Source: Haliangiales bacterium (GTDB taxonomy: Bacteria; Myxococcota_A; Polyangia; Haliangiales; Haliangiaceae). From it: a stretch of DNA of 21,116 nt. A model generated the notes under the pieces. It was not told the DNA's origin and did not search any database. It saw nothing but the letters and a program-made list of their open reading frames with translations. Both the position numbers and the translations under genes were made by a program. Location: NCBI GenBank assembly GCA_041916575.1, contig JAYRZI010000002.1, positions 1-21,116 of the forward strand, read 5' to 3'. Positions 1,839 through 18,910 of this stretch are shown in pieces. Numbering within the stretch: the stretch's first letter is position 1; the number at the start of each line of letters is the position of its first letter.

Positions 1839-4800
1839 ACCGATGCGCAGGGCAGGGCCTCGACGGCGGCGACCGCTGGTTCGATCGCGGGCTCGTACTT
1901 GGTGAGCGCCAGCGTCACCGGCGTGCTCACGCCGGCCACGTTCTCGCTCACCAACGATGCAGGCGGGGTGGCCACGCTGTCCATCGTCAGCGGCCACCCG
2001 CAGAGCGCGGTGGTGACCACGGCCTACGCCGCGCCGCTGGTGGTGGTGGTGCGGGATCACGCCAGTAACCCAGTCCCCGGCGCCACGGTGACCTTCGCTG
2101 CGCCGCTCGGCTCGCCCACGGTGACACTGTCGGCGACCAGCGTGGTCACCGACAGCAACGGGCGCGCTCAGGTGGTTGCCACCGCCGACACGCGCAGCGG
2201 CAGCTTCCAGGTGACGGCGCAGGCGAGCGCCGGCGCGCCGGTGGCCTTCGATCTGACCAACCTGGCGGGCGCTCCCGCCACGATCTCTGCGCTGGTCGGC
2301 GGCACTCCGCAGAGCGCTACGGTGCTGACCGGCTTTGAGCAGCCCCTGGCCGTGCTGGTGCAAGACGCCTTCGGCAACCCGGTGCCGGGCGCCACTGTGA
2401 CCTACACGGAGCCGGGCGTCGGTGCCTCGATCGTACTCTCGGAGATCACCGCGCAGACCGATGCCAGCGGCGTGGCCCAGGTGACCGGCACCGCCAACGG
2501 TACCGCCGGGGCCTACCTGGTGAGCGCCCATGTCGCCGGTGTGCTCGATGCAGCGGCGTTCGCGCTCACCAACCTCGCCGGCGCACCAGCGACCGTCGCT
2601 GCGCTAGGCGGCGACGAGCAGGCCACCGAGGTGGATACCGACTTCGCCGAGGCGCTCGAGGTGCAGGTGCTCGATGCGCAGGGCAATCCGGTTCCCGGGG
2701 CGGTGGTCACCTTCTCGGCCGCCACCGGTGCGGTGACCGCGACGCTCTCGGCCAGCACGGTCGCCACCGATAGCGAAGGCCGCGCTCAGGTCGGGGCGCA
2801 CGCCAGCACCACCGCCGGATCGCATCAGGTGACCGCGGTGGTCGTCGGTGCCTCGTCGCCGGCGGTGTTCTCCCTCGAGAACCTGCCGGGGGCGCCGGCG
2901 AGCCTGGTGGTGAGCCCCACCTCGAGCCCGCAGCAGGCGCAGGTCACCACTGCGTATCCGCAGCCGCTGGCGCTCATCGTGCTCGATCGCTTCGGCAACC
3001 CGGTGCCGCAGGTGGCGATCACCTTCACTGCGCCGACCAGCGGCCCCAGCGGCGCGCTCGATGCAGGCACGGCGACCAGCGACGCGCAAGGCCTCGCCGC
3101 GGTGACGATCACCGCCAATCAGCTCGCCGGCGCCTTCGACGTGCTGGCCACCGTCGATGGGGTGACGCTGCCCGCCGTGTTCGCGCTGACCAACCTGCAC
3201 GGCGCCGCTCACACGGTGAGCATCGATGGCGGCAACATGCAGGAGACCATCGTGGACACCGCCTTCGCCGCGCCGCTGGTGGTGCGGGTGACGGACTCCT
3301 TCGGCAACCCGGTGATCGGCGAACCCGTCACCTTCACCGCTCCGATCGCCGGCGCCACCAGCGTGCTGGCCACCGCGAGCGGCACCACCGACTCCAGCGG
3401 GCGCTTCGCCACTACGGCGGTCGCCGGCACCGTGACCGGGGCCTACCAGGTCGAGGCGGTGGCCGCTGGCGGCGGCTCCCCGGTGGAGTTCACGCTCACC
3501 AATCTCGCCGGTGCGCCGGCCTCGATCTCGGTGGTCGGCGGCGGCGGCGCGCAGAGCGCGCAGGTGCTGCATCCCTTTGCCCAGGCGCTCGCGGTGATCG
3601 TGCGCGATGCCTTCGGCAACCCCGTGCCCGGCGCGACGGTGAGGTTCGTGGCCTCGGCGCTGCCCGGCGCTACGCTATCGGCGCCAGACAGCGTCACTGA
3701 CGGCGAAGGTCAGGCCTCAGTGCTGGCGATCGCCGACCGCATGACCGGCAACTATCAGGTGGTGGCCACCGTCGGCGCGCTCGTGGCCACGTTCTCGCTG
3801 ACCAACACCGCCTCCGCGCCTGGTGCGGTGGTGGTCGCGCGCGGCGGCGGTCAGCGCGCGCTGGCCACCGTGGCCTACGCCGAGCCAGTGGTGTTCCAGG
3901 TGCTCGATGCGTACGGCAACCCGGTGTCCGGCGTCGAGCTGCTCATCGAGCTGCCGGTGCATGGCCCCGGCGCCGAGGTGGTGCGAGTGTCCGCGCAGTC
4001 CGATGCTGCGGGCGAGGTCTCGCTCGAGCTGCTGGCCAAGGGCATGGTTGGCACCTTCTCGGTGAGCGCCTCGGCCCCAGGCGCCAGCAGCGCCGCCATG
4101 GCGACCTTGACGGTGGCGCCCATCCCGACCACGGTGACCGCGACCGCGCCCGCGTCGGTGCCGGTGGATCGGCGCGCGCCGCTGGCCATCTCGGTGACCG
4201 GCCAGCTCGGCGTGCCGACCGGCGAGGTCCAGATCTACGACGAGCTCGGCCAGCTCGTGGCCACCGTGGCGTTGACCCGCGGCCTGGCCGAGGTGGAGGT
4301 CGACCTCAGCGCTCGTGGTCAGCGCCGCTTCGTGGTGCGTTACCCGGCGCAGGGCTCCTACGATGGCAGCGACAGCGCCGAGGTGGTGGTGACCGCCTCC
4401 GACGACGCCGGCACGCTGTCGGGTAGCGGCTGCCAGAGCGGCGCTGGCGGCGGCGGCTGGTTGCTCGTGGGCTGGCTCTTGCTGTGGGCGGCGCGGCTGC
4501 GCGATCGGCGCTCGGGCCTGTCGCTGGGGATCGTGCTCGGCGTGCTCGGCGCCGCCGGGGTGGCGCGGGCGCAGTCGGAGACCCGCGCGGTCAATCGCTA
4601 CCACGCGCCAGCAGCCGACAGCGAGTGGCTGGCCGCGGACTCGCTGTCCTACGGCGACACCTTCGGCGTGGCGCTGGCGCAGACCTGGGACTACGCGCGC
4701 CGGCCGCTGGTGGTGTACGAGGACGATGGCACCATCCGCTCGGTCCCCGTCGAGAATTCGCTGGTGGTGCACACCAGCGCTGCGGTGGCGCTCGGCCGCG

Positions 4801-5390
4801 GCCTGCGCGTCGCGGTGGCGGTGCCGATGGCCGTGTACCAAAACGGCGACGACGCCGTGTTCAACGGCGAGATGCTGCCTGGCCCCAAGTACGCCTTTGG
4901 CGATCTCCAGCTCGCCGCCGACCTGCGCCTGCGCGGCCAGCCAGGAGCGCCGCTGCGCGCGGCGGTCGGCCTGCGCCTTGCCACCCCGACCGGCTCGCGC
5001 TCGCACTTCATGAGCGATAGCCGCTGGGGCGTGGAGCCGCGGGCCTTCGTGGCCAGCACGCGCGGGCCGCTCGAGCTCGGGGCCGAGCTGTCGATGCTCT
5101 TGCGTCGGCGCACCGAGCTGGCCGGGCAGAGCCACGGCAGTGAGCTGCGCTTCATCGGCAGCGCTGGCGTGCGCGTGGCCCAGCGTCGAGTGCTGGTGGG
5201 CGCCGAGCTGGTCGGCGCCACCTCGCTGGTCTCGGACACCGCTACCGGCACACCGATCGAGCTCGGGGTGTCGGCGCGCACCACGCTGGCACACCATGTG
5301 GTGCTCGGCCTCGGCGGCACGCTAGGTCTGGTGCAGGCGGTGGGGACGCCGGACTATCGCTGGATCCTGTCCGCCTCTTGGACGCCGTGA
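3..5390 (+). CDS. Giant surface protein, 5'-partial (no start codon in window, ORF opens at the edge). It has at least 14 tandem ~102-aa bacterial Ig-like (Big_1 / invasin-intimin type) domains, then a MYXO-CTERM-like Cys/Gly-rich hydrophobic Arg-rich segment, then, still in frame, a signal-peptide-like stretch and a ~270-aa C-terminal module with beta-barrel-like amphipathic strands. The stop TGA is at 5388..5390.
   Basis: A single 1795-aa ORF with strong GC3 bias. The unit xGGxQSAxVxTAFAQ(A/P)LxVxVxDAxGNPVPGxxVTFxAPxxGATxxL...TDxxGxAxVxxTAxxxAGxYxVxAxV...F(S/A)LTN recurs at least 14 times. The protein ends ...GSGCQSGAGGGGWLLVGWLLLWAARLRDRR (4422..4511), then SGLSLGIVLGVLGAAGVARA|QSE, then alternating hydrophobic/polar strands to the end. 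All overlapping minus-strand ORFs are Arg/Pro/Ala-rich artefacts. Confidence 0.85.
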   Translation: MTDGSGAASVTATASAVAGSYSVTATVSGLLPASFSLTNTPGSPATIAATGGGAQSAVVTTAFAQALAVRVEDAHGNAVPGVTVTFAAPGSGATASLSSTTAVTDGSGAASVSATASAVAGSYSVTATVSGLLPASFSLTNTPGAPATVAVTGGGTQSAVVTTAFAQALAVRVEDAHGNAVPGVTVTFAAPGSGATASLSSTTAVTDGSGAASVTATASAVAGSYSVTATVSGLLPASFSLTNTPGAPATVSITGGGTQSAVVTTAFAQALAVRVEDAHGNAVPGVTVTFAAPGSGATASLSLTTAVTSGSGAASVTATASAVAGNYSVTATVSGLLPASFSLTNTPGAPATIAATGGGAQSAVVTTAFAQALAVRVEDAHGNAVPGATVTFAAPGSGATASLSSTTAVTDGSGAASVTATASAVAGNYSVTATVSGVTPASFSLTNTPGAPATIAATGGGAQSAVVTTAFAQALAVRVEDAHGNVVPGVTVTFAAPGSGATASLSSTTAVTNGSGAASVTATANATAGSYSVTATVSGLTPASFSLTNTPGAPATIAVVSGGDQRAAIETAFAQPLVVQVLDAHGNPVPGAAVSFTAPGTGATATVSASVTTDAQGRASTAATAGSIAGSYLVSASVTGVLTPATFSLTNDAGGVATLSIVSGHPQSAVVTTAYAAPLVVVVRDHASNPVPGATVTFAAPLGSPTVTLSATSVVTDSNGRAQVVATADTRSGSFQVTAQASAGAPVAFDLTNLAGAPATISALVGGTPQSATVLTGFEQPLAVLVQDAFGNPVPGATVTYTEPGVGASIVLSEITAQTDASGVAQVTGTANGTAGAYLVSAHVAGVLDAAAFALTNLAGAPATVAALGGDEQATEVDTDFAEALEVQVLDAQGNPVPGAVVTFSAATGAVTATLSASTVATDSEGRAQVGAHASTTAGSHQVTAVVVGASSPAVFSLENLPGAPASLVVSPTSSPQQAQVTTAYPQPLALIVLDRFGNPVPQVAITFTAPTSGPSGALDAGTATSDAQGLAAVTITANQLAGAFDVLATVDGVTLPAVFALTNLHGAAHTVSIDGGNMQETIVDTAFAAPLVVRVTDSFGNPVIGEPVTFTAPIAGATSVLATASGTTDSSGRFATTAVAGTVTGAYQVEAVAAGGGSPVEFTLTNLAGAPASISVVGGGGAQSAQVLHPFAQALAVIVRDAFGNPVPGATVRFVASALPGATLSAPDSVTDGEGQASVLAIADRMTGNYQVVATVGALVATFSLTNTASAPGAVVVARGGGQRALATVAYAEPVVFQVLDAYGNPVSGVELLIELPVHGPGAEVVRVSAQSDAAGEVSLELLAKGMVGTFSVSASAPGASSAAMATLTVAPIPTTVTATAPASVPVDRRAPLAISVTGQLGVPTGEVQIYDELGQLVATVALTRGLAEVEVDLSARGQRRFVVRYPAQGSYDGSDSAEVVVTASDDAGTLSGSGCQSGAGGGGWLLVGWLLLWAARLRDRRSGLSLGIVLGVLGAAGVARAQSETRAVNRYHAPAADSEWLAADSLSYGDTFGVALAQTWDYARRPLVVYEDDGTIRSVPVENSLVVHTSAAVALGRGLRVAVAVPMAVYQNGDDAVFNGEMLPGPKYAFGDLQLAADLRLRGQPGAPLRAAVGLRLATPTGSRSHFMSDSRWGVEPRAFVASTRGPLELGAELSMLLRRRTELAGQSHGSELRFIGSAGVRVAQRRVLVGAELVGATSLVSDTATGTPIELGVSARTTLAHHVVLGLGGTLGLVQAVGTPDYRWILSASWTP

Positions 5391-9002: not shown

Positions 9003-10187
9003 ATGGCTTCTGACGACGAAGACTTCGCATCGATGTTCGCTGCGTTCGAGAGCACCTCCGGTGCCAAGGAGCGCCGCCGGCCGCGCGTGGGCGACCTGGT
9101 CTCCGGCACGATCATCTCGATCGGCAAGGACGCGGTGTTCGTCGATCTCGGAGGCAAGGCAGAGGGCACCCTGGATCGCGGGCAGGTCGAGGATCGCGAG
9201 GGCAAGCTCACCGTCGCCATCGGTGACAAGATTGAAGCGCGAGTGGGGCAGGATGAAGGCGGCGTCCTGTCGCTGCGCATCAAGGTCACGCGCGGGCCCG
9301 AGGCCAAGGCCGAGCTGGTGAGCGCCCAGGAGATGGGCCTGCCGGTCGAAGGCCTGGTCACCGAGATGGTCAAGGGCGGCCTGTCCGTCGACGTGGCCGG
9401 CGTGCGCGGCTTCTGCCCGGCCTCGCAGATCGACAACCGCTTCGTCGAGGACCTGTCCGGCTTCGTCGGCCAACGCCTGACCTTCCGCATCACCCGCTAC
9501 GAGCCGGGGGGCCGCGGCAACCTGGTGCTGTCGCGCCGCGTGCTGCTGGATGAAGAGAAGGAGAAGCTGGCCGCCAAGACCCGCGAGCACCTCAAGGTGG
9601 GCGCGGTGATGCGCGGCAAGGTCGTGAGCTTCCGTCCGTTCGGCGCCTTCGTCGACCTGGGCGGCATCGAGGGCATGCTGCACGTGTCCGAGCTCGGCTT
9701 CTCCCGCGTCGAGAAGCCCGAGGACGTGCTGGCCCTGGGCCAGGAGGTCACCGTGTCGGTGCTCAAGATCGAGCCCGGCGACAAGGGCCAGCGCATCGCG
9801 CTCTCGCTCAAGGCGTTGGCCACCGATCCGTGGGCGAGCGCCGGTCAGGCCCTGACCGACGGCGCCCGCGTCAAGGGCAAGATCACGCGCATGCAGCAGT
9901 TCGGCGTGTTCGTCGAGGTGGCGCCCGGCATCGAAGGCCTGGTCCACATCAGCGAGCTCGGCGCCGGCCGCCGCATCAACCACCCGCGCGAGGTGGTGAG
10001 CGAGGGCCAGGAGGTCGAGGTCCAGGTCATCGGCCTCGATCCCGAGCGCCGCCGCGTCTCGCTGTCGATCGCGGCGGTCGCTGCCTCTGGCGGCGCCACC
10101 GCCGAAGACGTGGCCGCGGCCACGCAGCGCCCGTCGGGCGGCGCTGGGCTCGGCACCCTCGCCGATCTGCTCAAGCTCAAGAAGTAG
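9003..10187 (+). CDS. RNA-binding protein with four tandem S1 domains (ribosomal protein S1-like paralogue), 394 aa.
   Basis: The S1 OB-fold signature (G.V.G.V..i..fGaFVdl.g.eGllHiSel) occurs four times, around aa 30-95, 110-175, 195-260 and 280-345. The protein has a highly acidic N-terminus. Confidence 0.85.
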   Translation: MASDDEDFASMFAAFESTSGAKERRRPRVGDLVSGTIISIGKDAVFVDLGGKAEGTLDRGQVEDREGKLTVAIGDKIEARVGQDEGGVLSLRIKVTRGPEAKAELVSAQEMGLPVEGLVTEMVKGGLSVDVAGVRGFCPASQIDNRFVEDLSGFVGQRLTFRITRYEPGGRGNLVLSRRVLLDEEKEKLAAKTREHLKVGAVMRGKVVSFRPFGAFVDLGGIEGMLHVSELGFSRVEKPEDVLALGQEVTVSVLKIEPGDKGQRIALSLKALATDPWASAGQALTDGARVKGKITRMQQFGVFVEVAPGIEGLVHISELGAGRRINHPREVVSEGQEVEVQVIGLDPERRRVSLSIAAVAASGGATAEDVAAATQRPSGGAGLGTLADLLKLKK

Positions 10188-10245: not shown

Positions 10246-10602
10246 TCAGGGCTTGGCCACGGTGAAGCCGGTGATGCAGCGAAACGACTTCTGGTTGTAC
10301 TCGCTGGTCACGTACTCGAGCGTGACCTGATCGCCGTTGCGATAGGCCGCATACAGGATCTGGATGCCGGTCTCCGACAGCTCGCGCCCTTTGCACTGCA
10401 AGCCGCCCCAGCGGTAGTTGGTGGTGGCCTTGTCGAGCGCCAGCCAGATCGCGCCGTGGAAGAGGCGATAGCTGGAGTCACCCGGCTCGAGCAACATGAG
10501 CTGCGCCACCGACGAGGTGGGCGTGGTGTCCGCGTGGGCAGGCGCGGCAGCGGCGAGCAGGGCCAGCATCCCCGCGGCGACGGAAGAAGAGCGGAAGGAC
10601 AT
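10246..10602 (-). CDS. Small secreted hypothetical protein of 118 aa, with a cleavable signal peptide and two Cys in the mature ~94-aa part.
   Basis: MSFRSSSVAAGMLALLAAAAPAHA|DTT is a signal peptide with an AxA site. The composition is non-GC-biased (Y, N, K, F, Q-rich), unlike antisense artefacts. The ATG is at 10600..10602 (complement). Confidence 0.55.
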   Translation of the reverse strand: MSFRSSSVAAGMLALLAAAAPAHADTTPTSSVAQLMLLEPGDSSYRLFHGAIWLALDKATTNYRWGGLQCKGRELSETGIQILYAAYRNGDQVTLEYVTSEYNQKSFRCITGFTVAKP

Positions 10603-10737: not shown

Positions 10738-12252
10738 ATGGCAAGCTCGCTGTCATGTCGCGCCCTCCTGCAGACACATACCAGCAGCATGGAACGAAGT
10801 GATGCAGAGCTGCTAGCGGCCTCGCGCCGCGGCGAGCGGGCCGCCTTCGCCCTGCTGGTCGAGCGCTATCAGGGCGTGGTCTGCGCGGTGTCGTATAGCG
10901 GCACCGGCGACCGCTCGCTGAGCGAAGACGTGGCGCAGGATACTTTCCTCGCCGCGTGGCGCCAGCTCGATCAGCTCCGCGAGGTCGAGCGCTTGCGAGC
11001 GTGGCTGTGCGGGATCGCCAGAAACCTCGCCCACAAGGCGCGGCGCCGGCGCGCTCGCGAGCTGCCAGTGGCCGATGAGCTCGAGGCCGGAGCCGGTGCC
11101 GATCTGTTCGAACAGGTCAGCGACAGGCAAGCCGAGCGCGTGGTGCGTGAAGCGCTCCATCGCGTGCCCGAGACCTACCGGGAGGCGCTGGTGCTCTACT
11201 ACCACGAGCAACGCTCGGCCAAAGAGGTCGCGCAGGCGCTGGGGATCAGTGAAGCGGCGGTGCTGCAGCGCCTCGCTCGCGGTCGCCAATCGCTGGCGCA
11301 AGGCGTGTCCGCGCTCGTCGAGCGCGCGCTCGCCAGCCCGCTGCCACGCCGCAGCTTGGTCGTCGGCGTCCTGGCCGGGCTATCCGCCATCACTGCGTCC
11401 CATGCGTCCGCTGCCACCACCACGAGTCCGCATGGAGGAATGTCGATGTTGAAGCTAGCTCTTGCCGCCGCAGCCCTCACCGCCGCCGGCGCCACCGCCT
11501 ACGTTACTACCAGCCGCGACGGCAGCCCCGCCGCGGCCCCCAGCAACCCCGTCGCTGTGCTGCAACCTGCGGCGAGCCTCGGCGCCAGCACCCCGCCGGC
11601 GCAAAGACTGACCACGACCCCGGTCCGCAGCGCCGCCGCCGGCTCCAGCTCCACCGCCGGCGGAAAAGAGGAGGGCTGCGGCACCTGCGATGGTTCGGCC
11701 GAGCCCGAATCGCAGCCGCCGGTCGATAGCGCCACCGTGGCGCGCCTGGGCCTGCACGAGGGCCCCTCGCGCGGCGCCGCCGATGCGCCGGTGGTCATCA
11801 CCATGTTCACCGACATGCAGTGCAAGTACTGCGGCGAGTCGCTCGGCACCATGGATCAGCTCCTCGAGGAGCTCGATGGCAAGGTGCGCCTGGTGATCAA
11901 GCAGTTCCCGGTGCGCACCGGCTCCGAGCTAGCGGCGCAGGCCGCCTTCGCCGCCGAGGCGCAGGGCAAGTTCTGGGACCTCTACGACCTGATGATGGCC
12001 AACCAAGATCGGCTCTCGCAAGAGGGCTTGATCGAGCTCGCTCGTCGCGCCGAGCTCGATGTCGACGCGTTTGGGGCCGCCCTGGAAAAGGGCACCTACC
12101 GCAGCTCGGTGGAGGAGGTGCGCAAGGTCGCCAAGGCTCTGAAGGTCATGGGCACGCCGGCCTTCTTCATCAACGGCCGCCACATCGCTGGCGCCCGCTC
12201 GGCCGAGGTGTTCCGCGAGCACATCCAGGCCGCGCTCGCCGAGCGCCGCTAG
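10738..12252 (+). CDS. ECF (sigma-70 family group IV) RNA polymerase sigma factor read in one frame with a hydrophobic anchor and a C-terminal DsbA-like thioredoxin-fold domain (CXXC = CKYC). An alternative start is the ATG at 10789 (MERSDAELL). An internal strong SD+ATG at 11434..11448 could also give a stand-alone signal-anchored DsbA-like protein.
   Basis: Sigma region 2 (DVAQDTFLAAWRQLDQL...WLCGIARNLAHKARRRR) and region 4 (ETYREALVLYYHEQRSAKEVAQALGISEAAVLQRLARGRQSL) are recognisable. There is no stop codon through the hydrophobic segments SLVVGVLAGLSAITAS and MLKLALAAAALTAAGATAYV. The C-terminal 160 aa match the DsbA-family pattern (VVITMFTDMQCKYCG...KVRLVIKQFP...AQGKFWDLYDLMMANQ...GTPAFFINGRHIAGA). 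Confidence 0.8.
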   Translation: MASSLSCRALLQTHTSSMERSDAELLAASRRGERAAFALLVERYQGVVCAVSYSGTGDRSLSEDVAQDTFLAAWRQLDQLREVERLRAWLCGIARNLAHKARRRRARELPVADELEAGAGADLFEQVSDRQAERVVREALHRVPETYREALVLYYHEQRSAKEVAQALGISEAAVLQRLARGRQSLAQGVSALVERALASPLPRRSLVVGVLAGLSAITASHASAATTTSPHGGMSMLKLALAAAALTAAGATAYVTTSRDGSPAAAPSNPVAVLQPAASLGASTPPAQRLTTTPVRSAAAGSSSTAGGKEEGCGTCDGSAEPESQPPVDSATVARLGLHEGPSRGAADAPVVITMFTDMQCKYCGESLGTMDQLLEELDGKVRLVIKQFPVRTGSELAAQAAFAAEAQGKFWDLYDLMMANQDRLSQEGLIELARRAELDVDAFGAALEKGTYRSSVEEVRKVAKALKVMGTPAFFINGRHIAGARSAEVFREHIQAALAERR

Positions 12253-12396: not shown

Positions 12397-14658
12397 ATGG
12401 TGCCGCTGCTTTCCATCCGCTCGCCTCGCGTCGCGAGCCTCTTGCTCTCGCTCGTCGGCGCGGCCGCCGTCGCTGGGACCGCGCAGGCGGCGCCGCTGAC
12501 CGCGACCATCGTCGATGCTGCCACCGGCGCTCCCATCGATACCGCCTCGGCGCTGCTCGAGCGCGGCGAAGGTGCCGGTGTCGATGAGGCAGGCAAGCTC
12601 GTCCTCGAGCTACCGCCCGGCGTGCGGCAGGTCACGATCATCGCCCCCGGGTACGCCACGCGAGTGGTGGCCGTGCCGACCTCCGCCACGCTCGCCGCGG
12701 GCTGGGTGATCCAGCTCACGGCCGAGGGCGGCGCCGAGATCATCGAGGTCACGGGCGCCGGTCCCGAGCGCACCCGCCCGGTCTCCTACGAGCTGACGGC
12801 GGAGGACATCCGCACCTTGCCCGGGGCCGGCAACGACGTGCTGCGTGCAGTGCAGAGCCTGCCCGGCGTGGCGCGCATCCCCTACAACTTCGGCGGCCTG
12901 GTGCTGCGTGGCCAGGCCCCGCGCGACACCAGCGTGTTCCTCGATGGCATCGAGGTGCCGCTAGCCTTTCACTTCGGCGGCGTGACCTCGTTCTATCCGG
13001 CCACCCTGCTCGAGGACCTCGAGGTCACCAGCGGCGGCTTCGACACAGGCTGGGGCCGCACCCAGGGCGGCGTGATCTCGCTCGCCACCCGCGAGGCCCG
13101 CACCGATGCCTGGCGCGTCGGCGGCGAGGTCGGCCTCTTGCACTCGGGCGCCTTCGCTGAAGGTCCGGTGCCCGGCGGTGGCGGCGTGATGTTCGGCGTG
13201 CGCCGCTCGTACCTCGACGCGCTGGTGCGGCCCTTCGTCGAGGGCTCGCAGCCCTTGCCCAGCTACCTCGACGGCCAGCTCCGCGCCTCGTGGGGCGATC
13301 CGCGCCGCCTGGGGCGCATCATCCCGCAGGTCTTTGCCTCGGTGGATCGCATCACCAGCGAAGAGCTGTCGTTCACCTCGGCCTTCGTGCGCGCCGGCCT
13401 CACCTATCGCAAGAGCTGGGGCCCCACCCACCTCGAGGTGGTGCCGTGGGCCGGCTACAACACGCTCTTGCTCGAGAACGACGAGCGCGATTCGTCAGGC
13501 GACCCGATGGAAGAGGAGCCCTCGGGGCCGGTGCGCTTTCGCCGGCCGGTGCGCATGATCGGCGCGCGCGCCGACCTCCTGCACCAGCGCTCGTGGGGCC
13601 ACCTGCGCGCCGGCCTCGATGCCCAGGGCGGCCACCTCGGCCAGCTCGAGATCAACATCGAAGACGTGGACACCAAGGCCACCACCTCGCTGTGGTGGCG
13701 CGACCTCGCCGGCTACGCCGAGGTGCGCCTGGCGCCGTGGGGCGGCCGCGTCGCCGTCAAGCCCGGCGTGCGCGTGGAGAGCTACGGCGCCACCGACGAG
13801 CTCGTGGTGGATCCTCGCATCAACCTGCAGCAGCGCCTCAGCGAGCGCTGGAGCCTGCGCCAGGCTCTGGGCCGCTATCACCAGCCCCCGACTCCGATGG
13901 AGCTGGAGAAGACCCTGGGCAACCCCGACCTCGATAGCGCCTATACCGATCAAGCCTCGCTCAGCGTGGATGCACGGCTGCCGTACGGCCTCACCGCCTC
14001 GGCCACCGCCTTCTATCACCGCGGCCGCAAACAACCCACCGCTGCCGTGCGCCCCGAGCCCGATCCCGAAGTCCCCGAACCCAACACCGGCGGCCTGGGC
14101 CCGATCTTCGCCGAGCTCCTCGAAGAACAGTTCGGATCGTTCGACTACCGTGAGGCTACCGGCCAGGCGCGCACCCGCGGCCTCGAGCTATCGCTCAAGC
14201 GCCGCGCCGGCCGCTACTACGGCTACGCCGCGTACTCCCTGGCCTGGGCCGAACGCAAAGACGATCCCGCGCGCTTCTCCGGCTGGCGCCCCTACCAGCT
14301 CGACCAGCGCCACCACCTCACCCTGATCGGCTCGATCTCGTTCACCAAGTGGCGCTTCGGCGGCCGCATGTCGCTCGTCTCCGGCAACCCCTACAGCCCG
14401 GTCACCGGCGTCGACGAAAACGGCGAAGCCATGGTGAGCGAGTGGGGCGGCCGCCTCCCCGTCTTCTTCGCCGTCGACGTGCGCGCCGATCGCGCCTGGA
14501 AGCGCAACTGGGGCGAAGTCATCCTCTACTTCGACATCCAGAACGCCACCAACCGCCGCAACATCGAAGGCCGCGAGCTCGACGGCAACCGCGAAACCGA
14601 CATCCGCGGCCTGCCCATCCTGCCGTTCATCGGCGTCGAGATCGTCCCGCGCGGATAG
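12397..14658 (+). CDS. TonB-dependent outer-membrane receptor-like protein of 753 aa. It has an N-terminal carboxypeptidase-regulatory-like (CarbopepD_reg) domain, a plug domain and a C-terminal beta-barrel.
   Basis: Signal peptide MVPLLSIRSPRVASLLLSLVGAAAVAGTAQA. The ATIVDAATGAPI beta-sandwich motif is present. Plug motifs are DVLRAVQSLPGV, GGLVLRGQAPRDTSVFLDGIEV and EDLEVTSGGFDTGWGRTQGGVISLATRE. Amphipathic beta-strands run to the C-terminus. Confidence 0.8.
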   Translation: MVPLLSIRSPRVASLLLSLVGAAAVAGTAQAAPLTATIVDAATGAPIDTASALLERGEGAGVDEAGKLVLELPPGVRQVTIIAPGYATRVVAVPTSATLAAGWVIQLTAEGGAEIIEVTGAGPERTRPVSYELTAEDIRTLPGAGNDVLRAVQSLPGVARIPYNFGGLVLRGQAPRDTSVFLDGIEVPLAFHFGGVTSFYPATLLEDLEVTSGGFDTGWGRTQGGVISLATREARTDAWRVGGEVGLLHSGAFAEGPVPGGGGVMFGVRRSYLDALVRPFVEGSQPLPSYLDGQLRASWGDPRRLGRIIPQVFASVDRITSEELSFTSAFVRAGLTYRKSWGPTHLEVVPWAGYNTLLLENDERDSSGDPMEEEPSGPVRFRRPVRMIGARADLLHQRSWGHLRAGLDAQGGHLGQLEINIEDVDTKATTSLWWRDLAGYAEVRLAPWGGRVAVKPGVRVESYGATDELVVDPRINLQQRLSERWSLRQALGRYHQPPTPMELEKTLGNPDLDSAYTDQASLSVDARLPYGLTASATAFYHRGRKQPTAAVRPEPDPEVPEPNTGGLGPIFAELLEEQFGSFDYREATGQARTRGLELSLKRRAGRYYGYAAYSLAWAERKDDPARFSGWRPYQLDQRHHLTLIGSISFTKWRFGGRMSLVSGNPYSPVTGVDENGEAMVSEWGGRLPVFFAVDVRADRAWKRNWGEVILYFDIQNATNRRNIEGRELDGNRETDIRGLPILPFIGVEIVPRG

Positions 14659-14695: not shown

Positions 14696-17662
14696 TCAGT
14701 CGTCGTCGCCGTCCTCGTCGTTGTGGCCAGGATCGTTGTCGTAGAGCTGCTCGGGCGGAACCTCTGGCGGCTCGAAGCCATCTGGCCAGCGCGTGGTCTC
14801 GTCGAAGCGCGCCGCGGGGTGATCTAGGTAGGGCCGGTACTCTTCGGGCGGCGTCATGAGCATGGCTCCTTCGAGCATGGCTCCTCGAAGATCTGCCCCT
14901 ATCAAGTTGGCGTCGCGGAGATCAGCAAGGTGGAGGTTGGCCTCTTGGAGGTTGGTTTCTTGTAAGTTGGCGGCTTGGAGATTGGCGTGTTGGAGATTGG
15001 CGTGTTGGAGATTGGCGTGTTGGAGCTTGGCGTGTTGGAGCTTGGCGGCTTGGAGCTTGGCGGCTTGGAGGTTGGTTTTTCTGAGGTCGGCGCTGTCGAG
15101 GTTCGCGAGTGTAAGGTTGGCGTATTGGAGGTCGGCCTCTTGGAGGTTGGCGTATTGGAGGTCGGCCTCTTGGAGGTTGGTGTATTGGAGGTCGGCTTCT
15201 TGGAGGCTGACCCCTCGGAGGTCGGCTTCTTGGAGGTTAGCCTCTTGCAGGTTGGATCCCGAGAAGTCGGCGCTGACCAAATTGGATCGGGCGAGCTGTG
15301 CCTTGGGGTGCGTGCCACCTGGTGACATGACGGCTGCGGGCAAGCCGTGAAGTAAGAAGCTGCAGAGCATGGACATGAGCCTTTGGGGATCCCTCGCGGT
15401 GACGCCCGAAGATCCTGCGGTATAGCTGCCGATGGCCAGCGCTGCCTCGCGCAGGTACAGCCGTTCATCTTCGCGTAGGGTCGGCGCCGGTACGGCGGAC
15501 GGTCCTCCGAGTTTCTGCAGCGATTCATCATTGAAGGTGTGCTCGGCCCAGCGTGCCAGCTTGCCTCGATCTTCATCGGTCCATACCCCCGTGGCGGTCT
15601 GTGCCGCGCCCTGGTTGACGAGTTGCATCAGAAACTCGAAAGCGCGATCTTCGGTCCCGAGCAGTCGGGCACCTAGCAAGCGCGCCGGCGTCTTGTGCCA
15701 CTCCGCCTCGCTGCCACGCACGATGCGCAACAGCTCTTGCGACCAGTAGCGCGCCACCAGGAACTCGCGAAACGATTGGTGGCCAAATAGAATGGTGTGA
15801 TCGCCCGATTGCAGGTTGGCCTGCAGTGCCAGCACCAGGCCAAGTTGGATGAGCGCCATCATCTTTGGGTCCAACTTCAACTCGTTTTTCAAGAAGTGCG
15901 CGACATCGCTCTCGCTCAGCACCTGCTGGGCCTGCTCTTGCCTCAGCGCCTCCCAAGCCACGCGCCCCATCAGCCACAACATGGCATCCATCGGGGTGGC
16001 GCTTCGCTTGATGGTGGCGCTATGGCGCAGTACCTCAAGTAGGCTCTGCGAGGCCTCACGGATCGGCCGGTGCTGCTCGCTATCTCCGTCGGCCTTGCCG
16101 TTCGCGAGCTGGCGAAAGAACTGCTCGTACAAGAGCGCCTTGGAGGTCGCGCCTTCGTCACCCGAGTGCTTGGCCCAGGTGAAGGCGATCATGAATAGCA
16201 GGATCGGCGTAGTCGCCAGCTCGGCGAGTCCGCGCGGCTCAAGCTGCTCCCTCGTGAGCGAGGCACTCTCAGCCTGCGTCTGGGTGCCATGCCACCACTT
16301 CGCTAGCCACTCATCGATCTGTGGCGCCTGAAAAGGCAGGAGCCGAACCTCCTGCACGTGCTTGCCCAACTCCTGGGGCAGCACGCCCGGCCGGGTGAAC
16401 ACCACGAAGCGGTGCCGCTCGGTGGTCTTGTCGCCGAGCTTCTGAAACAGCGTGCTCAGCTCCGTTTGGCCCAGCACCACCTCATCCAGCCCATCGAGCA
16501 GGCACAGAAAGCGCTGTTCGCGCTCGGGCCAGGCGAAGGCGGCATCGTCTACTCCTGCCGAGTGCCCCGCTTGCTCCGCGGTGCGCTTGAGCGCTCGGCG
16601 CAGCGTCTCGCCCAGGTCCACCCGCTCCGAGGAAAAATCCTCGGCACAGCGAACGTAAGCTGGGCGCCAAAGCTCGGGGGCGCGCTGCGCCGAGCCGAGA
16701 AACTCACGCGCTAGGTCCCATGCCAGCTTGCGTGCGCTCAGGGACTTGCCGCTGCCGAAATCCGCGGTGACCACGATCACCTTGGGCCCGCCCGAAGCCG
16801 CAAGGAGCTCGCGCAGCAGCGCCAGGATGGGCTTGCCGTCCTTGTGCGCTTCTTTCCGCCGCCCTTCTCCACGCTCCGCCACCCACGCCAGCGGCTCTAC
16901 ATACTGGTCGTCCAACGCCAGAAACGGCAGCACCCCATCGCCCTGCTTCTCCCATTCCTCGCGTCGCCCATTGCCAAACACGTGCCGCCCACCCCAGGTA
17001 GCCAGCTCGCGCAGCAGCAGGTCGCGCACCAGCAGCTCGCGGTAGCGCTCCATTCCCTCCAGGTAGTCGGCGATCGCCGGCGCCGCGGCCAGGCCGCGCA
17101 GATACTCCAGCAGGAAGAAGCGCTCGAACTCGCGCGCCGCAGTGGCCGTCACCTCGAACGGCGGCACCTCTCCCTGCTCGGCGATCGCGAGCTTTGCATC
17201 AGTGAACGCCCACCACAGCGCGCGGTAGTAGGGCGAGGACAGCGGAGCTTGCAGCGAGCCTACGAACTCCAGCTCTTTGTCGGAGCCAGCCCCCAGCTCG
17301 ATGAGCTTGGGCGCGGCGAGGTTCATGCGTAGCTCGATCTCTTCTTTGCGCGCCTTCTCCTCCTTGCTGCGCCAGCGCTGCCAGGCCGAGGCCAGCGGTG
17401 CGCTCAACCCGTGCAGCTCCTGGTGCCGCCCCAGCGCTCGCCCGAACGACCGCGTCACCAGCGCCAGATGGAGCGCCGCCGCCTCCGGCGCCTTGGCCTT
17501 GCGCAACCCCAACAGGCCGCTCCCGGTCTCGAGCAGCCCTCGCAGCCCCTCCAGGTCCTTCTTGTCGAACGCGCTATCATTCGCCCCCTCCCAGACCTTC
17601 ATCCCGGCGCCCAGCAGCCTGCTCAATACACTAACTCCCATCGCGATCGCCGCAGGTTCCAC
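14696..17662 (-). CDS. STAND NTPase of the NACHT family (988 aa from a GTG at 17662; an alternative ATG at 17641 gives 981 aa). It has a ~290-aa N-terminal domain of unknown function, a NACHT module, a helical linker, about 29 C-terminal pentapeptide repeats and an acidic tail.
   Basis: Walker A KVIVVTADFGSGKSLSARK. Walker B / NACHT signature QRFLCLLDGLDEVV. The C-terminus is ...SNLQEANLQEADLRGVSLQEADLQYTNLQEADLQYANL...HANLQHANLQ...ADLRGAMLEGAML, which are A(D/N)LxxA(N/D)L pentapeptide repeats, followed by DNDPGHNDEDGDDD. Confidence 0.85.
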   Translation of the reverse strand: MEPAAIAMGVSVLSRLLGAGMKVWEGANDSAFDKKDLEGLRGLLETGSGLLGLRKAKAPEAAALHLALVTRSFGRALGRHQELHGLSAPLASAWQRWRSKEEKARKEEIELRMNLAAPKLIELGAGSDKELEFVGSLQAPLSSPYYRALWWAFTDAKLAIAEQGEVPPFEVTATAAREFERFFLLEYLRGLAAAPAIADYLEGMERYRELLVRDLLLRELATWGGRHVFGNGRREEWEKQGDGVLPFLALDDQYVEPLAWVAERGEGRRKEAHKDGKPILALLRELLAASGGPKVIVVTADFGSGKSLSARKLAWDLAREFLGSAQRAPELWRPAYVRCAEDFSSERVDLGETLRRALKRTAEQAGHSAGVDDAAFAWPEREQRFLCLLDGLDEVVLGQTELSTLFQKLGDKTTERHRFVVFTRPGVLPQELGKHVQEVRLLPFQAPQIDEWLAKWWHGTQTQAESASLTREQLEPRGLAELATTPILLFMIAFTWAKHSGDEGATSKALLYEQFFRQLANGKADGDSEQHRPIREASQSLLEVLRHSATIKRSATPMDAMLWLMGRVAWEALRQEQAQQVLSESDVAHFLKNELKLDPKMMALIQLGLVLALQANLQSGDHTILFGHQSFREFLVARYWSQELLRIVRGSEAEWHKTPARLLGARLLGTEDRAFEFLMQLVNQGAAQTATGVWTDEDRGKLARWAEHTFNDESLQKLGGPSAVPAPTLREDERLYLREAALAIGSYTAGSSGVTARDPQRLMSMLCSFLLHGLPAAVMSPGGTHPKAQLARSNLVSADFSGSNLQEANLQEADLRGVSLQEADLQYTNLQEADLQYANLQEADLQYANLTLANLDSADLRKTNLQAAKLQAAKLQHAKLQHANLQHANLQHANLQAANLQETNLQEANLHLADLRDANLIGADLRGAMLEGAMLMTPPEEYRPYLDHPAARFDETTRWPDGFEPPEVPPEQLYDNDPGHNDEDGDDD
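14900..15260. repeat. Tandem 15-nt (and 30-nt) periodic DNA repeat that encodes the pentapeptide repeats of the NACHT protein. Examples are ttggagattggcgtg x3, ttggagcttggcgtg, ttggagcttggcggc x2, and a 30-nt unit ttggaggtcggcctcttggaggttggcgta x3.
   Basis: Exact or near-exact consecutive 15-mers at 14975..15079 and 30-mers at 15125..15214. The plus-strand ORFs 14856..15350 and 14975..15325 are artefacts of this periodicity. Confidence 0.9.
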
Positions 17663-17829: not shown

Positions 17830-18910
17830 GGGGCTGTGGGCGGTGTGGGGAAGCGCGCCATAGCCGAAGGCATGCCCTGGCTCATGCTCGCTCAAGCGCT
17901 TCTCCAAGGGGCTGTGGGGTGCTCCGCGAACCTCCTCGATGATAGGCCCGCTTGCGCTCTTGCCTGCGCGGACACTCCATCAGCCCCGCCACCGTCCATC
18001 AGTCCCGCTCGTGGGCTCCGAACTGCCATTCGTGATCTCCGCCGAGAATCAAAAAACTGATCTTCGTTGTGATTGGCAATGTGAATCGTTGATGGTTTGA
18101 GTGTGAATGTGTAGAGTGTTGACATGCGCAGAGCGCCAACTCGCCGTCGCGCGGCTCGCACTACGAGTCCCCTTCAGCTCACGCTGGATAGCGCGCGCAA
18201 GCCTGCCGGCCGCGGCGGCTGGCGGCCCAACGCCGGACGTCCCCGTGGACGCCACACGTGTAGCCATGAGGCTCGCAAGCGCTTCGCCTCACGCGTACCG
18301 CTACACATCACGCTGCGCATGGCCCAAGACGTCCCCAGCCTGCGCCGCAGCGAGCCCGTCGCCCTCGTCCGCGAAGCCATCGCGGCTAGCCACACCGAGG
18401 GCTTTCGCATCCTCGAGTACGCCGTGCTCGCCAATCACGTTCACCTCCTCGTCGAGGCCGATAGCCAGGATGCGCTCGCCGGCGCCATGCGCACCCTGAA
18501 CGTGCGGCTCGCCAAGCGCCTCAATCGTTGCTTCGGCCGTCGCGGTGCATTGCTTGCCGAGCGCTACCACGCGCGACGGTTGCAGGCGCCGCGCGAGGTC
18601 CGCAATGTTCTGCGCTACGTATTGCTCAACGCGCGCCACCACGCCGCCGAACGCGGCACTCGCCTCGCTCGTGGCTGGGTAGATCCGGCCTCCAGCGCCG
18701 CCTGGTTCGAAGGCTGGCAACACCCGCATCATCTCGATCGCGGTGCCTACTGGATCGTGCAGCTCCTGCGCCACCCGCGGCCCACGCAACCCGCAAGAAC
18801 CTGGCTCTGCTCCGTGGGCTGGCGCCGCCACGGCTTGCTCGCGATCGATGACATTCCCGGCGACACTCCGTGAAGGCGCTCATGGTCGGGGGCTATGGAC
18901 GGTGGCGGGG
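17830..18910. repeat. G-rich REP-like motif GGGGCTRTGGRCGGTG(K)GGGG present three times in the same orientation, flanking the RAYT gene on both sides. Sites are 17830..17850, 17907..17923 (shorter) and 18888..18910.
   Basis: ggggctgtgggcggtgtgggg, ggggctgtggggtgctc and gggggctatggacggtggcgggg. Downstream 18955..19020 also carries reiterated ctcgagccccgc / ttcgagccccgc / ttcgagcccccggcgggggcctc units, with a GCCCCC-ggc-GGGGGC hairpin. Confidence 0.35.
18124..18873 (+). CDS. IS200/IS605-family Y1 (HUH) transposase-like protein of 249 aa, of the REP-associated tyrosine transposase (RAYT) type. It stands alone, with no TnpB partner. The true start may be a non-ATG codon downstream of 18124.
   Basis: N-terminal GRGGWRPNAGRPRGRH...PLHITLRMAQDVPSLRR block. 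HUH motif ANHVHLLVE. Tyr motif VRNVLRYVLLNARHH (RY..N). Confidence 0.75.
   Translation: MRRAPTRRRAARTTSPLQLTLDSARKPAGRGGWRPNAGRPRGRHTCSHEARKRFASRVPLHITLRMAQDVPSLRRSEPVALVREAIAASHTEGFRILEYAVLANHVHLLVEADSQDALAGAMRTLNVRLAKRLNRCFGRRGALLAERYHARRLQAPREVRNVLRYVLLNARHHAAERGTRLARGWVDPASSAAWFEGWQHPHHLDRGAYWIVQLLRHPRPTQPARTWLCSVGWRRHGLLAIDDIPGDTP

Follow-up and report, generated by a model that had tools for sequence, protein, structure and literature searches.

A putatively membrane-tethered ECF sigma factor joined to a DsbA-fold domain in Haliangiales, with a conserved candidate internal start codon and a promoter-like motif of its own

ECF sigma factors constitute the third major mode of bacterial signaling, and the control of those that lack a separate anti-sigma factor is only partly understood. 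The arrangement of a sigma factor, a membrane helix, and an extracytoplasmic domain in a single polypeptide is known from several groups. IutY from Pseudomonas putida (ECF243) is a fusion of a sigma factor and an anti-sigma factor, from which proteolysis by Prc and RseP frees the sigma part (PMC8999054). Proteolytic activation has also been proposed for ECF52 (SCO4117 from Streptomyces coelicolor), ECF48, and ECF53 (PMC8999054). [quoted passage not shown] 2021).

The protein described here is a variant of this arrangement in which the extension has a DsbA fold. As in IutY, an ECF sigma factor, a membrane-spanning part, and a presumably periplasmic domain are found in one polypeptide. However, IutY has an anti-sigma part of FecR type and is engaged in TonB-dependent cell-surface signaling, whereas this protein has no anti-sigma domain and carries instead a DsbA-fold putative sensor and a conserved internal start; its proteolysis would be expected by analogy with IutY. 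Like the actinobacterial groups ECF52, ECF48, and ECF53, it has a long C-terminal extension in which one or two membrane helices are combined with a proline-rich region and an extracytoplasmic domain (here a presumed one), but it does not have the zinc-finger (ZAS-like) that precedes their helix, nor their carbohydrate-binding domain. Set beside the class of sigma/anti-sigma fusions, it shows the single-polypeptide layout and no recognizable ZAS or FecR-type domain of about 80 aa. ECF263 resembles, by description only, some multi-helix relatives of this protein in Verrucomicrobiota, Acidobacteriota, Planctomycetota, and Pinirhizobacter, which have the sigma domain, the juxtamembrane motif, and the putative promoter in common with it; the protein itself differs from ECF263 in its DsbA domain and in its single hydrophobic segment (two at most). 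The soluble extensions of ECF41 and ECF56 (SnoaL-like), ECF42 (TPR), and ECF238 (Cys-rich) are absent, and Pfam gave no match to a SnoaL, TPR, or short Cys-rich cytoplasmic extension. An earlier note, made from the DNA letters, had placed the architecture outside the well-characterized ECF extensions. This holds for the DsbA or thioredoxin extension, of which no published description on an ECF sigma factor was found, but not for the overall plan, already represented by IutY, ECF52/SCO4117, ECF48/53, and ECF263.

The gene lies in a stretch of 21,116 nt from a Haliangiales bacterium, here called the window. Positions 10738..12252 of the forward strand form an uninterrupted ORF of 504 codons; this ORF, the CKYC motif, and the GGAGGA with its ATG were all found where the earlier note had placed them, and the GCGTC motif that it lists is likewise present. 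The sigma domain comprises two regions:

10855..11058, + strand: sigma region 2, aa 40-107 in the numbering of the 504-aa ORF (Sigma70_r2, PF04542; 52.1 bits, cut-off 24)
11140..11295, + strand: sigma region 4.2, aa 135-186 (Sigma70_r4_2, PF08281; 43.3 bits, cut-off 25.7)

The regions had been called clear from the letters, and the profiles agree: all the Pfam domain matches of the protein exceed their curated cut-offs, and TIGR02937 (sigma70-ECF) is matched with 80.5 bits against a cut-off of 42.9. Region 2 is modeled by AF2 with a pLDDT above 90, the QRLxRGR motif in region 4 is invariant among the homologues, and the linker between both regions (108-134) is short and of low pLDDT. No Pfam match to Sigma70_r3 or Sigma70_r1 was obtained. 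With regions 2 and 4 above the thresholds, no region 1.1 or 3, and a short inter-region linker, the protein is an ECF (group IV) sigma factor, and the AF2 model of its sigma domain superposes in Foldseek on SigW of the SigW-RsiW complex.

This sigma domain is genuinely fused to a membrane anchor and a complete DsbA-family domain, and the conservation of the fusion goes far beyond chance. More than 120 homologue clusters from Kofleriaceae/Haliangiales carry it at 50-93% identity, and in every one of the best 120 the sigma and DsbA parts belong to a single protein of 463-532 aa. A single ORF spans the junction in all the Kofleriaceae/Haliangiales loci compared, 30 related loci from independent assemblies, and no split version, with a sigma gene followed by a separate DsbA gene, was seen among these loci or the 120 protein clusters. 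The alignment of homologues reveals strong purifying selection on the segment from sigma-4 to the helix. The possibility that two genes have been artificially joined, by mutational loss of a stop (an alternative raised in the earlier note) or by an assembly error, so that only the separate products matter, would fit the Shine-Dalgarno sequence and ATG at the boundary, which resemble an ordinary gene start. It is nonetheless rejected, with next to no probability left to it: neither the window nor any of the 30 loci has an in-frame stop, the homologue clusters are fused without exception, the 46 residues from sigma-4 to Met237 show high conservation at the protein level, in other phyla too, and an identical sequence is present in a second, independent assembly (Logan SRR26835462). 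A stop in the orthologues, a sequencing error, or the lack of a DsbA profile match had been named beforehand as observations that would speak against a fusion; all three were checked, and all favor it.

The ORF extends upstream of the likely gene start, across two promoter-like elements:

10750..10758, + strand: -35-like element, CTGTCATGT (family consensus yTGTCA(G/T)GT)
10773..10779, + strand: -10-like element, GACACAT, 15 nt after the -35-like element (family consensus (A/G)G(C/A)AC(T/A))
10789..10791, + strand: start codon of the sigma-TM-DsbA protein, the ATG of Met18 of the 504-aa ORF

The sigma gene almost certainly starts at ATG 10789 and not at 10738, because homologues begin with M-x-R-S-D-A-E-L-L (MxRSDAELL), matching ATG 10789, and because 10750-10779 corresponds to a conserved promoter-like motif. 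The start formerly assigned at 10738 is almost certainly wrong, the codons upstream of ATG 10789 being overlaid on this motif. Initiation at ATG 10789, which has no Shine-Dalgarno sequence before it, gives a protein of 487 aa and 51.8 kDa.

The motif as a whole, TGTCAKGT-N15-GCAC, is found upstream of the sigma gene across the family. Among 22 aligned upstream regions, GTCAKGT is invariant (22/22), as is the AC (+24/+25) in the -10-like element, while +22 is a G in 20 of the 22. Exactly one copy per locus is present in the window and in 27 further loci, always directly upstream of the sigma gene, and in all these motif-bearing loci the ATG is located 37-38 nt from the G of GTCA. Of 50 distant relatives, from Verrucomicrobiota, Acidobacteriota, Planctomycetota, and Gammaproteobacteria, 33 have a related form, TGTCAC(C), at the same spacing. 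The fixed distance between motif and ATG points to autoregulation and to a transcript whose leader is very short or absent, and the motif is probably a promoter recognized by the very sigma factor that it drives. A consensus scan found no sigma-70-type promoter, and a terminator scan and Rfam were also empty. Since there is no second copy of the motif in the 21-kb window, nor within about 6 kb at the other loci, no regulon member beyond the sigma gene itself was identified. The genetic neighborhood holds no conserved genes, either by tblastn of the window neighbors against 80 loci or by clustering of the flanking ORFs; a conserved operon partner was rejected, the downstream TonB-dependent receptor not being conserved across the family.

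Between the sigma domain and the extension, the protein contains two hydrophobic stretches:

11305..11418, + strand: juxtamembrane segment, aa 190-227, in which the last sigma-4 helix continues (LVExxL) and is followed by a Pro-containing hydrophobic helix
11446..11508, + strand: predicted transmembrane helix or signal anchor, aa 237-257, MLKLALAAAALTAAGATAYVT, from conservation, AF2 helix, and hydropathy

The interval between sigma-4 and the membrane helix is only about 46 aa long and holds no canonical anti-sigma domain, in keeping with what the letters alone had indicated. For aa 190-236, no anti-sigma domain was matched in Pfam (full-length scan) or in NCBIfam (segment, E<=10), a profile search of PDB sequences with the sigma-4-to-helix segment was empty, and neither HxxxCxxC nor any other Cys/His motif occurs between sigma-4 and the helix. 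A hidden anti-sigma domain was rejected as well, hhalign recovering only a motif of 15 residues, placed on RsiW 59-73 (APADFTANVMAKLPK) with P=0.005 and a probability of 7%, which is weak. RsiW is the anti-sigma factor of SigW in Bacillus subtilis (class I, regulated intramembrane proteolysis), and its residues 62-71 resemble the FTxxV(L/M)AxLP that precedes the helix here. The membrane helix of RsiW is Ala-rich, as is that of the window protein. In RsiW, however, a complete zinc-binding anti-sigma domain of four helices belongs to a protein of its own, whereas here only a helix-IV-like motif, aligned at the 7% given above, is covalently attached to the sigma factor.

The juxtamembrane consensus, RPRRxLAAxVLAALPxxxPS, coincides with the first of two hydrophobic segments that the earlier note had counted. 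Among homologues, L193, E195, and L198 are invariant, and V194, L207, V211, A214, L215, and P216 are at least 90% conserved; relatives in other phyla carry the same motif as FVEGxLxRxxPGxxFTxxVLAALP. Both segments do exist, with median Kyte-Doolittle values (19-aa) of 1.47 and 1.62 that do not separate them, but the first (aa 207-220) is short in the family consensus, some 13-14 residues with two conserved prolines, and is probably a family-wide juxtamembrane motif rather than a transmembrane helix. The second is predicted by AF2 as a helix at 236-258, with K239 invariant and G251, T253, and A254 at least 90% conserved, which leaves the window protein with one clear helix and one doubtful segment. 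The juxtamembrane helix has a pLDDT of 33-60 both in the full-length AF2 run and in a run of aa 18-262 with a more diverse alignment of 98 sequences, so that an intramolecular inhibitory contact of this helix is unsupported.

Beyond the membrane helix, the extension consists of a linker and the DsbA-fold domain:

11509..11727, + strand: Pro/Ala-rich linker, aa 258-330, variable in length and sequence, disordered (AF2 pLDDT below 50)
11674-11688, + strand: GCGTC Cys pair (C314/C317) in the linker, not conserved
11728..12249, + strand: DsbA-fold thiol:disulfide oxidoreductase domain, aa 331-504 (Pfam, AF2, Foldseek)
11821..11832, + strand: catalytic CxxC (CKYC, C362/C365), both Cys in 120/120 homologues
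12151..12159, + strand: cis-Pro loop G-T-P (P474), P474 at least 90% conserved

A complete DsbA-family domain with CKYC had been proposed, and the profiles and the structural model agree with it. Thioredoxin_4 (PF13462) matches aa 342-497 (E 4e-25, 89.3 bits, cut-off 23.2) and DSBA (PF01323) aa 368-497 (E 2.5e-17, 63.7 bits, cut-off 25.6). The AF2 model, with a pLDDT of 94-98, shows a thioredoxin fold with an inserted helical domain; Foldseek aligns it to 3gyk (TM 0.86, rmsd 2.3), BdbD (TM 0.77), and also C. diphtheriae DsbA/TsdA and ScsC, and phmmer of the domain against the PDB reaches 1.6e-15. The dipeptide within the CxxC varies among the 120 homologues (K/P/S, then Y/H/F). By its fold, invariant CxxC, and conserved cis-Pro loop the domain is intact, and redox activity is predicted for it. 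Enzymes of the Thioredoxin_4 type (BdbD, C. diphtheriae DsbA/TsdA/MdbA, ScsC, 3gyk) have the inserted helical domain, the CxxC, and the Thr-cisPro in common with it, with TM 0.77-0.86 over the target, but they are free or lipid/helix-anchored proteins, and no reported fusion of BdbD, TsdA/MdbA, ScsC, or 3gyk to a sigma factor was found. The second Cys pair, GCGTCDG, is present in the window as described, but it is not a feature of the family, C314 being found in 31 of 120 homologues, about a quarter, and falling in a gap in 85; a role of this pair as a family redox element was rejected.

The boundary between the juxtamembrane segment and the helix holds the elements of a candidate second translation start:

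11434..11439, + strand: internal Shine-Dalgarno sequence GGAGGA, encoding Gly233-Gly234, 6 nt before ATG 11446
11446..11448, + strand: internal start codon (Met237), candidate start of a signal-anchored or secreted DsbA of 268 aa and 27.9 kDa

These elements, reported earlier for the window, turn out to be conserved. Of 31 sequences (30 loci and the window), 30 retain the in-frame ATG together with the Shine-Dalgarno sequence, usually as the sole such pair in frame within the ORF. GGAGGA or (A/G)AGGA precedes the ATG by 3-6 nt in 28 of 29 scored sites, and by 9 nt in the remaining one. Could this reflect a constraint on the protein (Gly-Gly, Met) or a translational pause, with the fusion as the only product? 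G233 is nearly invariant, M237 is found in 100 of 120 homologues, distant relatives retain a K-G motif at the same place, and the spacing is short in many loci, GGAGGA ending just 3 nt before the ATG in 16 of 29. On the other hand, the encoded residues vary (HGG, SGG, TGG, PGG, KGS, EGS, RGS, KGT) while the nucleotides (A/G)GGA are fixed, and GGA makes up 47 of the 48 Gly codons at the site against 12% of the other Gly codons of these ORFs (Fisher p=1e-39, a value without phylogenetic correction). In the distant relatives whose alignment reaches the site and that have the K-G motif, the Gly codon is mostly GGC and an ATG is only occasional, so that these relatives act as a control. Moreover, the ATG falls exactly at the M-(L/I/F)-K-hydrophobic beginning of a signal-anchor-like N-terminus. 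A fusion-only locus is accordingly considered unlikely, though it keeps a real minority share. Because GGAGGA and ATG are kept as nucleotides, a free exported DsbA of 28 kDa is probably produced beside the 52-kDa fusion, and the earlier proposal that one frame encodes both proteins is strongly reinforced.

The DsbA domain would lie outside the cytoplasm, as suggested by the presence of just one membrane helix, by the resemblance of the beginning of the shorter isoform to a signal anchor, and by the location of the structural relatives. An opposite topology is conceivable, in which both hydrophobic segments form a membrane hairpin and the DsbA domain of the full-length protein stays in the cytoplasm as an attached thiol-based anti-sigma domain or redox switch, comparable to RsrA, only the short isoform being exported. 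The similar hydropathy of both segments and the helices predicted for both by AF2 are compatible with it. However, the brevity and the two prolines of the first segment argue against a hairpin, which would also leave R222 and the invariant K239 outside, presumably in conflict with the positive-inside rule. DsbA, TsdA, MdbA, BdbD, and ScsC, the nearest structural relatives, are all extracytoplasmic enzymes, the 70-aa Pro/Ala linker seems typical of exported tethers, and the same helix would open the internal isoform as its signal anchor. The hairpin is for these reasons regarded as improbable.

Judging by its motifs, the window protein represents one branch of a family that extends across phyla and consists of one-component ECF sigma factors tethered to the membrane, with interchangeable C-terminal domains. 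The same sigma domain and juxtamembrane motif are found joined to multiple transmembrane helices, CarboxypepD_reg and PDZ, LRR, DUF6263, and unknown domains; four of the relatives (L037, L047, L048, and L073) have apparently many hydrophobic helices, their sequences having been judged by eye. Three Kofleriaceae paralogues (L023, L024, and L026) show the same design of Shine-Dalgarno sequence and ATG in front of another C-terminal domain of no known type. A further protein (P0170), in which a membrane helix links an unrelated-looking ECF sigma factor to several DsbA-like domains in tandem, would represent convergence on the architecture of sigma factor, helix, and DsbA.

The locus may be best understood as a self-contained module, with its own promoter, a tethered sigma-DsbA fusion, an internally started free DsbA, proteolytic release, and self-induction, a reading that is held somewhat above even chances. 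Transcription would proceed from the TGTCAKGT-N15-GCAC promoter, probably through the encoded sigma factor, and would yield an mRNA with little or no leader, because the promoter is so near to ATG 10789. Translation from this codon would produce the 52-kDa protein, with a cytoplasmic sigma factor, the juxtamembrane segment, one helix (aa 237-257), the flexible linker, and a periplasmic DsbA domain. The strong internal Shine-Dalgarno sequence and ATG 11446 at the start of the helix would very probably direct independent and more efficient translation of helix, linker, and DsbA, giving a free exported 28-kDa oxidoreductase. The tethered sigma factor would be held at the membrane until proteolysis, as in IutY or in regulated intramembrane proteolysis of the RsiW type, releases it. 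The trigger might be thiol/disulfide stress, possibly copper stress, reported by the periplasmic DsbA domain, for which redox sensing is plausible. The freed sigma factor would then raise transcription of its own gene, chiefly leading to more free DsbA, so that a single protein module would act as both sensor domain and effector.

Alternatively, the sigma factor might act uncleaved, in a manner similar to ToxR or CadC, recruiting RNA polymerase to its own promoter, which would be kept near the membrane by co-translational insertion, while DsbA modulates it through conformation or oligomerization. The only recognizable target promoter (in the 21-kb window and over some 6 kb at the other loci) is that of the gene itself, the product is a membrane protein, and there is no anti-sigma domain to degrade. 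However, the tether has just about 46 aa, and the fusions IutY and SCO4117 are described as activated by cleavage (PMC8999054); activity without release is rated as rather unlikely.

A bolder reading is a one-gene homeostat based on dual initiation, an idea put forward tentatively and at clearly less than even confidence. The full-length protein (sigma factor, transmembrane helix, and a C-terminal domain X) would be rare, its start codon having no Shine-Dalgarno sequence on a near-leaderless mRNA, and would serve as a proxy sensor, since the internal start would supply the very same X in free and abundant form. With a tagged copy of X and its own promoter as the sole target needed, the cell would gauge the DsbA pool and answer with more DsbA. 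If this is true, the Shine-Dalgarno sequence and ATG in L023, L024, and L026 would point to a general principle of "sigma-X plus free X", and the cross-phylum family would form a large uncharacterized class, in which membrane-tethered ECF sigma factors drive their own genes through near-leaderless transcripts.

The locus presents a DsbA-fold enzyme as the presumably outward-facing module of a membrane-tethered sigma factor, and its conserved internal start would supply both a sensor and a free enzyme from one reading frame. The promoter-like motif at a fixed distance from the start codon is common to relatives in at least five phyla with many different C-terminal domains. Such genes are labeled merely as "sigma-70 family RNA polymerase sigma factor", an annotation in which the start may be placed too far upstream and the second product is missing. 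If confirmed, the system would offer a compact model of how the disulfide status of the envelope feeds back on the supply of oxidoreductase in myxobacteria, and would define a large one-component sigma factor family with exchangeable sensor domains, useful for the design of synthetic regulators.

The frame in which the earlier note had placed an ECF sigma factor and a DsbA-family domain, 10738..12252 (+), is uninterrupted over 504 open codons, and GGAGGA (11434-11439), ATG 11446 and the CKYC codons (11821-11832) are all found in the sequence as claimed. Both domains give Pfam matches, and the protein also exceeds the threshold of the general ECF model TIGR02937 (NCBIfam); it belongs both to the ECF sigma factors and to the DsbA-like Thioredoxin_4 family.

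Pfam domains, all above the curated cut-offs (504-aa numbering)
aa 40-107, + strand, Sigma70_r2
aa 135-186, + strand, Sigma70_r4_2
aa 342-497, + strand, Thioredoxin_4 (E 4e-25)
aa 368-497, + strand, DSBA (E 2.5e-17)

Two genes could also come to share such a frame if the stop codon between them was lost or the sequence contained an error. Among 5.8 billion proteins searched, there was an identical protein, together with over 119 other clusters that are 50-93% identical; all are 463-532 aa long and combine the sigma domains with DsbA/Thioredoxin_4, and the named homologues belong to Kofleriaceae or Myxococcales. After clustering at 50%, about a dozen of the representatives have a single match that extends over the sigma-DsbA junction. 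When each species was represented by a single genome, full-length matches were confined to Kofleriaceae, Haliangiales and Myxococcota MAGs; no orthologous locus has a stop codon at the junction, which a single ORF spans each time. Because, in addition, a Logan assembly independent of that of the window encodes the identical protein, a lost stop codon and a sequencing error are both ruled out. The fusion is almost certainly genuine, and these searches point to a real family, but one restricted to a single lineage.

The start at 10738 was not borne out, as homologues open with MxRSDAELL, which corresponds to Met18 (ATG 10789). Their aligned upstream regions share a bipartite motif, yTGTCA(G/T)GT, 15 nt, (A/G)G(C/A)AC, with the start ATG always 37-38 nt after the G of GTCA and exactly one copy per locus at a constant position (27 loci and the window).

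Copy of the motif in the window
10750-10779, + strand, promoter-like motif, falling within the frame as first drawn

No sigma-70-type promoter was detected by a promoter scan. A closely related motif, tttcyTGTCACC ... CAC(T) ... ATG, is found in 33 of 50 distant relatives from other phyla, again with a spacing of 37-38 nt. Since the motif travels with the sigma domain across phyla, it is best explained as the target promoter of the sigma factor itself, a reading that we regard as probable. With only ~10 nt, at constant spacing, between the -10-like element and the ATG, the leader would be a few nucleotides long at most, and the absence of a Shine-Dalgarno (SD) sequence before ATG 10789 is consistent with both proposals. 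Among the distant loci (L031-L080), the shared form is tttcyTGTCACC-N14-(C/T/G)AC(T/G), placed ~40 nt before the sigma ORF and followed by an in-frame ATG 37-38 nt past GTCA; the carriers are verrucomicrobial, acidobacterial, planctomycete and Pinirhizobacter relatives, and many of the verrucomicrobial genes start with GGTGAT ATG ATG.

The proposal that one frame yields both the fusion and a stand-alone DsbA is reinforced by conservation of the internal SD and ATG at the nucleotide level. An in-frame ATG coincides with the first residue of the membrane helix in the window as well as in 29 of 30 related Kofleriaceae-type loci; it is preceded by GGAGGA, AAGGA, GAAGGA, AGAGGA or AAGGGA, and this is usually the sole in-frame SD+ATG of the entire ORF. 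The residues encoded at the SD vary by locus (HGG, SGG, TGG, PGG, KGS, EGS, RGS, KGT) while the nucleotides stay constant: the codon is GGA for 47 of 48 glycines there and for 12% of the remaining 1141 glycines of these ORFs (Fisher p ~1e-39, with no correction for common descent). The distant relatives, which keep a Lys-Gly motif at this place with mostly GGC as the glycine codon and only occasionally an ATG, act as an internal control. The predicted internal product (268 aa, 27.9 kDa; fusion 487 aa, 51.8 kDa) begins with M-L-K and ~18 hydrophobic residues, and its N-terminus resembles those of exported or signal-anchored proteins. On these sequence grounds the locus very probably makes both fusion and free DsbA, and use of the internal start itself is rated as likely. 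The same design recurs in three Kofleriaceae paralogues that end in a different domain (~350 aa) instead of DsbA, one without Pfam match or CxxC.

Loci of these paralogues (sigma part, juxtamembrane motif, promoter motif and internal SD+ATG as in the window)
L023: 6001-7848
L024: 3024-4835
L026: 2425-4191

An alignment of 120 homologues shows both active-site cysteines in every sequence; conservation of the Thr-cisPro loop (P474) reaches at least 90%. The second cysteine pair (GCGTC), previously singled out, is not a general feature of the family, as the linker (aa 258-330, Pro/Ala-rich and variable in length) carries a pair in only about a quarter of the homologues. AlphaFold2 models the sigma domain with pLDDT >90, the DsbA domain with 94-98, and the linker as disordered. 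With Foldseek, the C-terminal domain matches 3gyk (TM 0.86), C. diphtheriae DsbA/TsdA, ScsC and BdbD, and the N-terminal part SigW from the SigW-RsiW complex; phmmer against the PDB agrees. In sigma region 2, Cys91 (window 11008-11010, WLCGIARN; C74 of the 487-aa protein) is kept in at least 90% of the 120 fusion homologues and invariant in a mixed 98-sequence alignment including verrucomicrobial relatives.

Relatives of the sigma domain at 40-50% identity, likewise in long ORFs, occur in Verrucomicrobiota, Acidobacteriota, Planctomycetota, Hydrogenedentota and Pinirhizobacter. They share a motif after sigma-4, FVEGxLxRxxPGxxFTxxVLAALP, followed by hydrophobic segments and then by very different C-terminal parts, which makes the wider family, with members in several phyla, a modular one. 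A second protein search found hundreds of verrucomicrobial relatives, annotated only as 'RNA polymerase sigma factor'.

C-terminal parts of the relatives
apparent multi-helix membrane domains (judged from the sequences)
six CarboxypepD_reg repeats and a PDZ domain
leucine-rich repeats
DUF6263
regions without Pfam match

A metagenomic protein (P0170, 1044 aa, JGI) combines a different-looking ECF sigma, a membrane helix and several tandem DsbA-like domains. Because it is differently built and lacks the juxtamembrane motif, it suggests an independent fusion, and thus that the sigma-DsbA pairing may have arisen more than once. The best-scoring representatives for the DsbA part (P0121, P0122, P0123 and many others; 560-1196 aa, 3-6 matching stretches each) look like multi-DsbA repeat proteins; in P0122, the one sequence inspected, a signal peptide precedes tandem DsbA-like domains that each have a separate CxxC.

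The 46 residues from sigma-4 to Met237 are highly conserved across the 120 homologues (L193, E195 and L198 invariant; V194, L207, V211, A214, L215 and P216 at least 90%). Both hydrophobic segments described earlier are present, but the first is short, with a consensus, RPRRxLAAxVLAALPxxxPS, that includes two prolines; the second (MLKLAIAAAALAAAGTTAYVV; K239 invariant) is plausible as the membrane helix. AlphaFold2 extends the last sigma-4 helix to residue 199 and places a low-confidence helix at 205-219 and a further one at 236-258. Hydropathy alone does not tell the segments apart; a single membrane helix is preferred because of the prolines in the first, the positive-inside rule (by which RPRR, R222 and K239 would lie on the cytoplasmic side) and the extracytoplasmic location of the nearest DsbA relatives. 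The N-terminus would then be cytoplasmic and the C-terminus outside. From its Phe onward, the juxtamembrane motif matches RsiW residues 62-71 (FTANVMAKLP, checked against PDB entry 5wuq), which we take to be the fourth helix of the anti-sigma domain. The same alignment is recovered by hhalign (pairwise P 0.005, probability only 7%), the segment had no match in a profile search of PDB sequences or in NCBIfam scans, and a second AlphaFold2 run with a more diverse alignment (residues 18-262) left the helix at pLDDT 33-60, its confidence not raised. A built-in remnant of an anti-sigma helix is a lead, not a finding.

Genes around the sigma-DsbA gene in the window
3-5390, + strand, very large surface-type protein (>1795 aa, extending beyond the window start) with stretches of Big_1 (12), Invasin_D3 (7) and CarboxypepD_reg (5)
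10246-10602, - strand, 118-aa ORF divergent from the sigma gene, signal-peptide-like N-terminus, no Pfam match
12397-14658, + strand, TonB-dependent receptor (Plug and beta-barrel), 144 nt 3' of the sigma-DsbA gene
14696-17662, - strand, 988-aa protein, NACHT NTPase domain then pentapeptide repeats, an architecture typical of STAND-type signalling or defence proteins
18124-18873, + strand, 249-aa product weakly matching the IS200-like Y1 transposase family (PF01797, 27.8 bits), which may be a REP-associated tyrosine transposase

The 118-aa ORF and the adjacent S1-domain gene (9003-10187) are 88% identical to genes of Kofleriaceae BC1.218 (L014), where the sigma-DsbA gene lies 4.7 kb further off and is merely 55% identical. 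At the receptor gene the promoter motif is absent, and the homologues do not share this gene as a neighbour. Neighbouring genes in general are not conserved across the homologous loci, and promoter-motif scans of the window and the other loci reveal no other target nearby, which is compatible with a one-gene feedback loop without proving it.

In the proposed mechanism, the sigma factor would drive its own promoter and be set free by regulated proteolysis, in analogy with the proteolytic activation of IutY and the proteolysis proposed for ECF52/48/53 (PMC8999054). The signal may be thiol/disulfide stress or, by comparison with ScsC, copper stress, and free DsbA would be the main output, favoured over the fusion by a strong internal SD versus none at the sigma start. 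This working model as a whole is only slightly favoured. The protein would work like the sigma/anti-sigma fusions, but without the recognisable anti-sigma domain that defines them. In the literature searched, no ECF sigma factor was described as carrying a DsbA or thioredoxin extension; what is new lies in the DsbA sensor module, in the dual initiation and its conservation, and in a promoter that adjoins the start codon throughout the family.
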